Assembly (NCBI GenBank): GCA_963715305.1
Contig: CAVQSB010000014.1
Location: 2,994-66,993 of the forward strand
Origin: an uncultured Actinomycetota bacterium
Lineage (GTDB): Bacteria; Actinomycetota; Acidimicrobiia; Spongiisociales; UBA4744
Direction: 5' to 3'
DNA length: 64,000 bases
Both the position numbers and the translations under genes were made by a program. The notes under the pieces are model-generated. The model saw only the letters and a program-made list of their open reading frames with translations, did not search any database and was not told where the DNA came from. Every line of letters begins with the position of its first letter. Within the stretch, counting starts at the first letter, position 1. This document shows positions 56,122 to 57,426 of the stretch, one piece after another.

Positions 56122-57204
56122 GTGCCGGCACTAGACCTCACGCCGCTCGAAGTGGCCACGGGCGCAGTCGTCGGCAAGGGCTCCGGCGCCTTGGTACTTC
56201 CCGCGGCCGCCTCGTCCATCTCGCCGCTGACCGCCCTCGAAAACGCGGTGCTCCCTGCCGTCTCCCGGCCACCTTGCGTCGTCACGTTCTCGGGAGGCCG
56301 GGATTCCTCACTCGTGCTGGCGGTCGCCGTCCGGGTTGCTCGCCGTGAAGGTTTGCCGCCGCCGGTACCCGCCACGATCATATTCAAAGGGACGAAGACG
56401 GCGGAAGAGTCGTCATGGCAGGAGCTCGTCATCGACCATCTCGGCCTCGACGGGTGGATACACCGTGAGATAACCACCGACCTCGATTTCGTCGGCCCGC
56501 TGGCAACCGATGTACTGAAGAAGCATGGAATCCTTTGGCCCCTCAACGTCTACGTGCACCAGGCCCTCATGGATCACGCCGCCGGCGGTTCGCTGATGAC
56601 GGGCATGCACGGGGACACCGTCTTTGGGGGAGGTCGATGGTTGATGGCCAACCAGGTTCTGTCCGGGCGTCAACGGCCCACGCTGAGAGATAGCACGCGG
56701 GTGGCGTTCGCAGTCGCCCCGAAGTGGCTGCGGCGGCAGGTATTTCGACGCAGAATGTGGGAGGCACCCTGGCTGCTGCCCGGGATTCAGAAGGACTTCA
56801 AGCGTCAGTTCGCCCGTGTGCAGGCTGAGGAACCGCGCCGCTGGGACCGCTGGATCGGGTGGTTTGCAAACCACCGGTCCGTTCACCTCACGCTCCGGAG
56901 CATGACCGCACTCACCAGGGAGGTGGATGCCCTCCTGGTCCAACCACTCATCGAACCGGGTGTCCTGGTCGCTTTGCGCGAAGCCGGCCGGACGCGCGGA
57001 ATCGGTGATCGCACGCACCTCATGCGCTCGCTTTTCGACACGCTGCTCCCCGACGCTCTCCGAACCGGCCCGAAAGGCGAGTCGACTCGGGAGAACCGAC
57101 CGTGCTTCGGATGGGCGGCGAGGTGGATGCAGTCGGTCGACGGCTTCATGCACCTCAGAATGCTTGCCCCATTCATGCAGACGCCTGGCCACGGCCGGGG
57201 ATAG
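56122..57204 (+). CDS. Asparagine-synthetase-like ATP pyrophosphatase (lasso-cyclase-related), lacking the N-terminal glutaminase domain
   Basis: PP-loop FSGGRDSS at about residue 56, TGMHGD.VFGG, LPD..R..PK; C-terminus possibly frameshifted. Confidence 0.8.
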   Translation: MPALDLTPLEVATGAVVGKGSGALVLPAAASSISPLTALENAVLPAVSRPPCVVTFSGGRDSSLVLAVAVRVARREGLPPPVPATIIFKGTKTAEESSWQELVIDHLGLDGWIHREITTDLDFVGPLATDVLKKHGILWPLNVYVHQALMDHAAGGSLMTGMHGDTVFGGGRWLMANQVLSGRQRPTLRDSTRVAFAVAPKWLRRQVFRRRMWEAPWLLPGIQKDFKRQFARVQAEEPRRWDRWIGWFANHRSVHLTLRSMTALTREVDALLVQPLIEPGVLVALREAGRTRGIGDRTHLMRSLFDTLLPDALRTGPKGESTRENRPCFGWAARWMQSVDGFMHLRMLAPFMQTPGHGRG

Positions 57205-57262
57205 AGTTCGTTTGTGAAACCATAACAAGTGGTTGCACGGGACGACTGCATTGGGAGGTGCA

Positions 57263-57376
57263 ATGACCTACGAAAAACCAGTAATCAGCGACTTCGGTGA
57301 TATCTCCAAGCACACCTACGAGGGACACGAAATCCAGTTCGTCGGCGCCTCCGCGCGATCGTCCATTCAGTTCTAG
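57263..57376 (+). CDS. Lasso-type RiPP precursor peptide, 37 aa (MTYEKPVISDFGDISKHTYEGHEIQFVGASARSSIQF)
   Basis: SD gggagg; YxxP leader motif with G and T at lasso-leader spacing; directly downstream of the AsnB-like gene; not in the ORF track. Confidence 0.75.
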   Translation: MTYEKPVISDFGDISKHTYEGHEIQFVGASARSSIQF

Positions 57377-57406
57377 GGGAACCGCAGGCAGTCGTCGTCT
57401 ACTAAT

Positions 57407-57426
57407 CAGCCCGGGCAACCGGGTTG
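57407..57426 (+). terminator. GNRA-loop hairpin after the precursor gene
   Basis: cagcccgg-gcaa-ccgggttg, 30 nt after the stop, between convergent genes. Confidence 0.45.

Follow-up and report, generated by a model that had tools for sequence, protein, structure and literature searches.

Lasso cyclases are two-domain enzymes resembling asparagine synthetase B (AsnB), with a length of ~500–650 amino acids (aa). In the sources consulted here, lasso peptides are defined by a bond between the α-amine of the core and an Asp or Glu at position 7–9, and in paeninodin-type clusters kinases and a nucleotidyltransferase (PadeK/PsmK/PsmN) tailor the C-terminal Ser (PMC9266682); Class V lasso peptides carry an added bond from Lys to the C-terminus, made by a clostripain-like transpeptidase (PMC13178200); asparagine synthetase-like enzymes amidate or nitrilate the C-termini of peptides that are synthesized ribosomally and modified post-translationally (RiPPs) (PMC13060819); and a 2026 review states that a crystal structure of a lasso cyclase does not exist (PMC13352647). 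Here we analyse a locus in a 64,000-nucleotide (nt) stretch of DNA from an uncultured Actinomycetota bacterium (contig CAVQSB010000014.1; the whole stretch is called the window), in which the gene of a short AsnB-type ligase is followed by a small open reading frame (ORF) for a peptide with a lasso-type leader. A preliminary description had regarded the ligase as truncated and the pair as a RiPP system that joins a lasso leader to different chemistry. With a probability of roughly 55%, we read the locus as the cyclase–precursor (C–A) module of a dispersed lasso-type RiPP system, probably impaired or a relic in the window's genome. The module is read as atypical and probably impaired because the ligase has lost its C-terminal fifth, the leader-binding protein B1 and the protease B2 were not found, and the core has no acid in register. 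As it stands, the gene pair cannot yield a canonical lasso peptide; a non-canonical chemistry is plausible but unproven.

Results

A ligase family without N-terminal domain

The window ligase, translated from a GTG start codon, had been described as a 360-aa protein with an asparagine synthetase domain only, and this was confirmed: its sole Pfam match, covering residues 38–250, is to Asn_synthase (PF00733; E 3.4e-10; 40.6 bits, cut-off 21), and a second Pfam domain is absent. Since only ~55 residues precede the PP-loop, the protein lacks a glutaminase domain. TIGR01536 aligned over profile positions 241–310 of 517 only (19.6 bits, cut-off 267), and the NCBIfam models for asparagine synthase, LarE and NAD synthase all remained far below their cut-offs. 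Within the PP-loop motif SGGRDSS, which aligns with the SGGxDSS of β-lactam synthetase and AsnB, S57, G58, G59, D61, S62 and S63 do not vary among 48 family members. The second Asn_synthase match in the window's genome (contig C8) was rejected as a candidate cyclase, being a GMP synthase.

Of 8000 candidates scored in a word-indexed protein search, 536 reached E≤1e-3, those listed being mostly 380–410 aa long. When a profile built from ten members was run against 1.84 billion representatives, it matched 2038 of them at E≤1e-3; at E≤1e-30 there were 971 clusters, mostly of about 385–400 aa; among the best 150 matches, 145 measured 337–425 aa and aligned near end to end (~5–379 of 381 positions), and five measured 537–768 aa. 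Judged by these alignments, absence of the N-terminal domain is the normal state of a large family, to which the window ligase clearly belongs over its first four fifths: on a family hidden Markov model (HMM) of 397 nodes, its residues 3–313 match nodes 6–317 with 471 bits. The label 'truncated' was thus mistaken, short length being a trait of the family; and as many of its short enzymes serve canonical G1...D8/9 cores, shortness alone is no sign of new chemistry. Source annotations and the ESM Atlas label give the family only as 'asparagine synthase(-related)'. The AlphaFold2 model of an intact homologue, P0002, has a mean predicted local distance difference (pLDDT) of 93.7 and a predicted template-modelling score (pTM) of 0.92; its nearest solved folds by Foldseek are the synthetase parts of TsnB9, AsnB, β-lactam synthetase, human ASNS and carbapenam synthetase (E 2e-6 to 2e-4), followed by LarE and NAD synthetase.

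A scan of genome contigs yielded 302 relatives, and the best 80 loci were analysed with HMMs for B1, B2, HprK-like and nucleotidyltransferase proteins, seeded from the proteins of locus L046 and iterated on stop-to-stop ORFs. Pfam identified the seeds as PqqD (2e-16), Transglut_core3 (8e-13) and NTP_transf_5 (8e-17), and NCBIfam lasso_biosyn_B2 matched the B2 seed with 43.7 bits, above its cut-off of 33; in L035, the P-loop protein resembles HprK-related kinase A of NCBIfam (E 1e-12, below cut-off). A PqqD-type RiPP recognition element (RRE; B1) was found at 67 of the 80 loci, the B2 protease at 54, an HprK-like protein at 72 and NTP_transf_5 at 50. In L046, NTP_transf_5 (6274–7356), PqqD (7356–7634), Transglut_core3 (7615–7986) and the short ligase (8001–9209) are followed by the P-loop protein on the opposite strand (9129–10007) and two precursors (10086–10250 and 10247–10410); with B2 and ligase packed in this manner, there is no space between B2 and C for a separate N-domain gene. 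Given its usual adjacency to B1, B2 and HprK-like genes, we take the short ligase, on this genomic context, to be the cyclase of lasso-type clusters. Enzymes of ~385 aa thus occur in otherwise ordinary lasso clusters with B1, B2, kinase-like protein and nucleotidyltransferase, many of them with G1...D8/9 cores, and the 971 representative clusters at E≤1e-30 point to a widespread actinobacterial cyclase family without N-terminal domain.

Two side observations concern the extent of the family. Four members of 681–768 aa (P0177, P0179, P0227 and P0258) have an extra C-terminal domain of ~330 aa; BLASTP rejected a fusion to an HprK-like protein, and a DIDLL-type motif suggests a nucleotidyltransferase fusion. 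One member (L107) lies on a contig binned as the cyanobacterium Oscillatoria, all others being from Actinomycetota; either mis-binning of the contig or a transfer might explain this.

The precursor peptide

Just as first described, the ATG of a 37-aa ORF, preceded by a Shine–Dalgarno sequence, lies 58 nt past the ligase stop codon (Table 1). Its leader fits the lasso motif as Y3-x2-P6-x-I8-x3-G12-x5-T18-x, with Thr at −2. We aligned it with the other precursors of its genus, nine in all (one each from the window and G007, three from G002, four from G006), in which Y3, P6, D10, G12, I14, H17, T18 and Y19 of the leader are invariant, so that its identification as a YxxP..G....T lasso leader held. 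A six-frame search of the whole 2.39-Mb assembly with the leader regular expression gave seven matches, of which only the window ORF adjoins an Asn_synthase gene. This unique position, together with syntenic ORFs in congeners that have the same leader and Shine–Dalgarno sequence, places the 37-aa ORF beyond chance and, by sequence and synteny, marks it as a genuine conserved RiPP-type precursor with a lasso leader. The NCBIfam model lasso_leader_L3 matches the window peptide, but with 12.1 bits it stays below the cut-off of 19; of the nine genus precursors, seven were matched at E≤1 (best 0.009). A protein identical to the window ORF is present in the protein collection, and a homologue search with a 47-aa form of the ORF returned only this 37-aa protein of the window itself.

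Cut after Y19, the core EGHEIQFVGASARSSIQF has E1 and E4 as its only acidic residues, in line with the earlier statement that Asp and Glu are absent from positions 7–9; Lys is absent as well. With acids at positions 1 and 4 only, a core of this sequence cannot form a canonical 7–9-residue ring. Rules that would reveal a hidden acceptor (a cut before H17, a cut before T18, a start at the first Gly, or an Asp-x5-Ser pair) were rejected, as each fails for several of the nine peptides. The hairpin reported behind the ORF exists, but a U-tract is absent, a terminator scan gave 0 sites, and the fold is no better than that of shuffled sequences (z = −0.56).

The three syntenic orthologous precursors end in QF. 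This would fit a ligase that acts on the peptide's C-terminal carboxylate and forms an amide or nitrile, but no ring, as TsrC, ScdTA and PesC do among the asparagine synthetase-like enzymes (PMC13060819). However, the family lacks a glutaminase domain, lasso B1/B2 accompany it at the majority of loci, and precursor C-termini are unconserved across both the genus set and the wider family, making such a reaction very improbable.

The 3' end of the ligase gene

Homologue alignments span residues 1–317 of the window ligase only; residues 318–360 (43 aa) cannot be aligned with the family end ARPDKAxFG...FRSxLLxQAAWL, and nodes 318–397 of the family HMM, 80 of its 397 positions, are unmatched. The missing part holds R316, K319, L353 and W357 (P0002 numbering), all invariant in 48 family sequences. 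In the family, the stretch LP...R.DK..F aligns with LPAETVNRPK of β-lactam synthetase and LPASVAWRQK of AsnB, the Lys residues of which (K443 and K449) we take to be catalytic. At the DNA level, an identity of ~80% to congeners ends at ~57055 and returns at ~57205, leaving ~160 nt of unrelated sequence in a locus that is ~150 nt shorter there. A simple frameshift was discarded as an explanation: a tblastn search of the window in all frames with four intact C-termini found nothing past ...LLPDAL, so that no frame encodes the family C-terminus. An origin by duplication or transposition was dropped too, since the 166-nt tail, used as query in blastn and tblastn searches of the window's own genome and all loci, matched nothing but itself, the segment being unique. 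This C-terminal loss, which the preliminary description did not mention, points on sequence comparison to impairment and not to a new activity; the window ligase is probably, though not certainly, impaired.

Alternatively, the anomaly could be an assembly or consensus artefact or a harmless strain variant, with B1 and B2 encoded in the unassembled third of the genome and the precursor cut in a non-standard way before H17, giving H1...E7. The genome is indeed only 63.9% complete, and P0001, which is 91% identical to the window ligase, has a normal C-terminus. Errors do occur in such assemblies: the ligase gene of G007, the closest congener (L006/L033, G007:C3, ~8950–9150 in L033), goes out of frame directly after RPDKALFGPAFRGEP through a 1-nt insertion, in the region where the window copy breaks off, while the near-identical protein P0010 from a metagenome, like the G002 copy, is intact. 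With H17 as residue 1, moreover, Asp or Glu falls at 7–9 in five syntenic or neighbouring genus cores. Yet ~160 nt of unrelated sequence in a shortened locus is no point indel, both flanks are collinear with those of congeners, and the H17 rule fails for other genus precursors and ignores the conserved Thr at −2. We regard an artefact or harmless variant as unlikely, and slightly more so than the working non-lasso module considered below.

Synteny and dispersed pathway genes

The ligase occurs in five of the 60 relatives searched, one of them the unpublished genome G023, and three of the five are among the nine congeners; in a class-wide sample of 401 genomes, seven had a match at E≤1e-40, with an identity of no more than 47%. 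Syntenic ligase–precursor pairs were found in G002 and G007, with ligases 71–78% identical to that of the window. G002 is collinear with window positions 50763–59277, encoding a histidine kinase, a LuxR-type regulator, ligase, precursor, an SRPBCC protein and an aldo-keto reductase, and G007 is collinear on both flanks.

In G002 and G007, B2 and B1 lie on other contigs (in G007 together with a nucleotidyltransferase-like gene), and both genomes lack another cyclase-like Asn_synthase gene. B1 is present in G002, G006 and G007, and B2 in G002, G007, G049 and G023; G002 and G006 have two further precursors with B1 and an HprK-like gene beside leuS. Within the clade of the window ligase, the deeper members L117, L115, L036 and L037 have adjacent B1, B2 and HprK-like genes; L113/114, L034, L033 and the window have none of the three in the locus, the window also being without an adjacent nucleotidyltransferase gene. 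A metagenome scan for relatives in this clade gave nine loci, and L113/L114, with an intact ligase of 73% identity, were without adjacent peptide. In the window's own genome, as assembled to 63.9% completeness, B1 was found neither by PF05402 nor by our HMM, and B2 neither by PF13471 nor by our HMM. This genome does contain a trio (C7:223667–227800; L122 7665–11802, minus strand) of an HprK-like protein of 349 aa (E 2e-7), an NTP_transf_5-like protein of 472 aa (1.5e-18) and an ABC exporter of 609 aa, near which B1, B2, cyclase and leader-like peptide were all not found; it was rejected as an orthologue of the B1/B2 loci of the congeners.

A complex predicted for B1 of G007 with the window precursor scored 0.40, the best of three controls reaching 0.02; runs agreed in at least 73% of contacts, with a partner pLDDT of at least 49. 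Of 80 solved complexes, 58 attain the pass mark, as do 2 of 110 mismatched pairs, scores of 0.60 or under being those of seven of the 80 solved complexes and of both passing mismatches. The result counts as weak support for binding of the window leader by a congener B1; the prediction used our own alignments and a B1 from a congener, and RRE–leader complexes have already been solved, so that the pass may reflect likeness or memory.

Some neighbouring genes and loci deserve mention in their own right. Directly upstream of the ligase, the window encodes a HisKA_3 histidine kinase and a LuxR-type response regulator (54123–56020), a pair that is syntenic in G002 and missing in G007; a regulatory link to the ligase–precursor pair is possible, but unsupported. 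In G006, locus L030 (G006:C2, 6617–10091) encodes a full-length 593-aa cyclase with N-domain, B1, an HprK-like protein and a precursor; the leader of this precursor (...SIADHTF) is a related one, and its core has its first acid at position 12. In L037/L014 (G049:C83; L014 6918–7700), seven tandem lasso-leader precursors have cores of 10–13 aa, mostly x-[DE]-G-S..., with Asp at 7–9, which are too short for a threaded tail; three precursors in L115 resemble them.

Precursor types across the family

The preliminary description had asked whether conserved peptides lie beside homologous ligases, their absence counting against its reading, and a strict leader expression detected them at 72 of the 80 loci: 102 peptides with 99 unique cores, after one spurious peptide (L099:3396) had been removed by hand and at least one other, arginine-rich and probably spurious (L088), kept. 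It had further asked whether these peptides lack an acceptor at 7–9, which is true of 48 of the 99 cores and not of the other 51. More precisely, 38 cores have Asp or Glu at 7–9 (mostly G1...D8/9) without the motif K-x5-D, 40 have K-x5-D without such an acceptor, 13 have both, and eight have neither, three of the latter coming from the window's genus. K-x5-D is present in 53 cores, whereas 1000 within-core shuffles gave 6.0 on average and 14 at most; no other K-xn-D spacing is seen in more than 13 cores.

On a FastTree tree of 83 ligases (fragments L091 and L112 left out; Shimodaira–Hasegawa-like support, midpoint root only), the K-x5-D loci group in a single clade (support 91), whose 43 rows comprise 39 that have the motif and four without detected peptide; the window ligase is placed in a separate clade of ten rows, with a support of 100. 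In the K-x5-D clade (loci L041–L110, for example L045, L046, L051, L059, L061 and L064) the motif is present in 53 of 54 peptides, the exception being L088; in the loci outside, it is present in 3 of 52. As inferred from sequence, the tree reveals a coupling of ligase clade and precursor type but not its cause, as kinship also clusters labels.

Among 50 unique K-type cores, Gly stands at K+3 in 47, extending the unit to K-x-Φ-G-x-x-D. Between 0 and 19 residues precede the Lys and 11–21 follow the Asp; 28 cores have a Cys both before the Lys and after the Asp, 22 have neither, and none is discordant. From this pattern we infer that the conserved unit would be the Lys–Asp pair and not its distance from the N-terminus, and that the N-terminal extension would be retained in the product. 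It suggests, for this clade, a ring between the Lys and Asp side chains with a retained N-terminal extension tied by a disulfide; alternatively, the unit could be a conserved binding motif, or the peptide could be trimmed as far as the Lys. By atom count, a Lys(i)–Asp(i+6) lactam has 26 ring members, and an 8-residue lasso ring has 25 on Asp and 26 on Glu. The earlier proposal of a lasso leader combined with different chemistry thus obtains strong sequence-level support, but from a sister clade and not from the clade of the window.

Cores of the window's genus

The nine genus cores are variable except for G28 and S30, which are invariant within [FY]-x-G-x-S-[GA], at the end of a segment of 4 to 13 residues that separates leader and motif. 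Asp is found at 7–9 in four of them and is absent there in five, including that of the window. Such a pattern would be expected if the module worked on a product other than a lasso, its ring or modification not involving the N-terminal amine and an Asp or Glu at 7–9: either a linkage around [FY]-x-G-x-S-[GA] with an acid 1–4 positions ahead, or a modification of the invariant Ser by an HprK-related enzyme. Further arguments for a working module of this kind are the peptide ORF kept in frame across species, two acceptor-less precursors of three in G002 with its intact gene set, the K-x5-D motif of the sister clade, which ties the ligase family to a ring geometry that is not N-terminal, and the HprK-like/nucleotidyltransferase-like pair with ABC exporter elsewhere in the window's genome. 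The spacing between acid and Ser, however, varies (x5 in five of the nine and x6 or x7 in three; G006c, with Asn in place of the acid, has no such spacing), the window ligase lacks the invariant Lys region, and the kinase-like locus of its genome is not orthologous to the B1/B2 loci of congeners. Altogether, this explanation appears doubtful to us.

Table 1. Features of the ligase–precursor locus (window coordinates)
Feature	Position	Strand	Basis
Ligase gene, 360-aa Asn-synthase-domain (PP-loop) protein, family without N-terminal domain	56122..57204	+	ORF, PF00733, family HMM, homologues 70–91% identical
PP-loop motif SGGRDSS, residues 57–63	56290..56310	+	Sequence; family invariance; β-lactam synthetase/AsnB alignment
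Aberrant 3' end, codons 318–360 + stop, unrelated to conserved family C-terminal ~63 aa (RPDKAxFG...LLxQAAWL)	57073..57204	+	DNA/HMM comparison
Shine–Dalgarno sequence GGGAGG, 4 nt ahead of ATG	57253..57258	+	Sequence; GCATTGGGAGGTGC kept in L006, L007, L008
Precursor leader M1–Y19, motif YxxPxIx3Gx5Tx	57263..57319	+	Nine genus precursors; weak lasso_leader_L3 match
Predicted core EGHEIQFVGASARSSIQF + stop	57320..57376	+	Translation, genus alignment; G28-x-S30 genus-invariant
8-bp GC-rich hairpin, 4-nt loop, 3' of precursor	57407..57426	+	Fold; sequence partly kept in L006

Discussion

In the mechanism that we infer for the family, B1 would bind the YxxP leader, that of the window peptide included, B2 would cleave after the Thr-x of the leader, and the ligase would adenylate the side chain of an Asp or Glu, so that an amine could close the macrolactam. 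Having lost its last fifth, including the invariant Arg/Lys motif, the window ligase would probably have lost this function. At the level of the window, the message is that the gene pair is real, but probably not that of a working producer.

Several observations weigh against a relic. In G002, an intact ligase co-exists with B1, B2 and a kinase-like gene, yet two of its three precursors lack a canonical acceptor, so that the absence of an acceptor is not simply decay in the window's genome. Precursor ORF, frame, stop and leader have been kept across three species despite indels, which argues that the peptide is still under selection. The 129-nt tail of the ligase gene stays open, with a GC content of 0.58/0.55/0.81 by codon position, a coding-like periodicity at the third position, and its product is faintly collinear with the family motif (RENRPCFG versus RPDKAVFG); for these reasons, the tail may encode a diverged yet working C-terminus. 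Both features, like the uniqueness of the segment, speak against the tail being a mere read-through into spacer DNA. That B1 and B2 were not found proves little, as more than a third of the genome is missing. From public sequencing runs (seven listed, four of which contain part of the stretch, with a best share of 0.27, and none of which is recorded as RNA), only Logan contigs of related strains aligned to the window, and no contig covers 56976–57158 or bridges the ligase 3' end. Finally, no member of the short family is known from experiment to yield a product.

Taken together with the family-wide patterns, these observations allow a broader, tentative reading, to which we give clearly less weight than to an impaired module: the short ligases would operate beyond the rule of an N-terminal amine and an Asp or Glu at 7–9, the largest clade forming a Lys→Asp(i+6) ring, and the clade of the window would represent a third type, built around G-x-S, with the 37-aa peptide as a genuine substrate and not a relic. 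For the K-x5-D products, a free N-terminal extension of 0–19 residues, tied to the tail by a disulfide, would give a lasso with two tails and an internal ring.

Roughly one in two precursors that accompany short ligases departs from the ring rule, and does so in a regular manner. Should this be borne out, the range of topologies open to mechanically interlocked peptides would widen; the short enzymes would show what the N-domain of the cyclase is dispensable for; and genome-mining rules that demand an acceptor at 7–9 would miss these peptides. In the literature searched, which covered the field in part, with subscription papers and supplements outside it, we found no description of a lasso cyclase without N-domain or of one that closes a Lys(i)–Asp(i+6) ring.

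Among the closest known systems are the split-B clusters of the paeninodin/pseudomycoidin type. They share with the short-ligase loci the YxxP...G...T-x leader, a PqqD-type RRE, a B2 of transglutaminase fold and an ATP-dependent ligase of AsnB type, and the HprK-related and NTP_transf_5 neighbours present in most loci of the family. They differ in the ligase, which in the family is ~385 aa long and without N-terminal domain, and still more from the window, where B1, B2, kinase and nucleotidyltransferase are not adjacent, the core has no Asp or Glu at 7–9 and the C-terminal fifth of the ligase is replaced. With the synthetase domains of AsnB, β-lactam synthetase and carbapenam synthetase, the family has in common the PP-loop SGGxDS, the overall fold and the 'LP...R.K..F' segment, but identity is only 13–18%, the family has no glutaminase domain and its substrate is presumably a peptide; the Lys segment is missing from the window ligase.

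The K-x5-D clade invites comparison with Class V lasso peptides such as lariocidin B and gelatinamin A, in which a Lys side chain likewise enters an isopeptide bond within a lasso scaffold; according to PMC13178200, however, this bond leads to the C-terminus and is made by a clostripain-like transpeptidase after the canonical N-terminal ring, whereas in the K-x5-D clade the putative Lys–Asp(i+6) bond would replace the N-terminal ring and would be made by an AsnB-type ligase. TsrC, ScdTA and PesC, lastly, are likewise described as members of the AsnB family that use ATP to activate the carboxylate of a peptide (PMC13060819); they differ in acting at the C-terminus and in belonging to non-lasso clusters.

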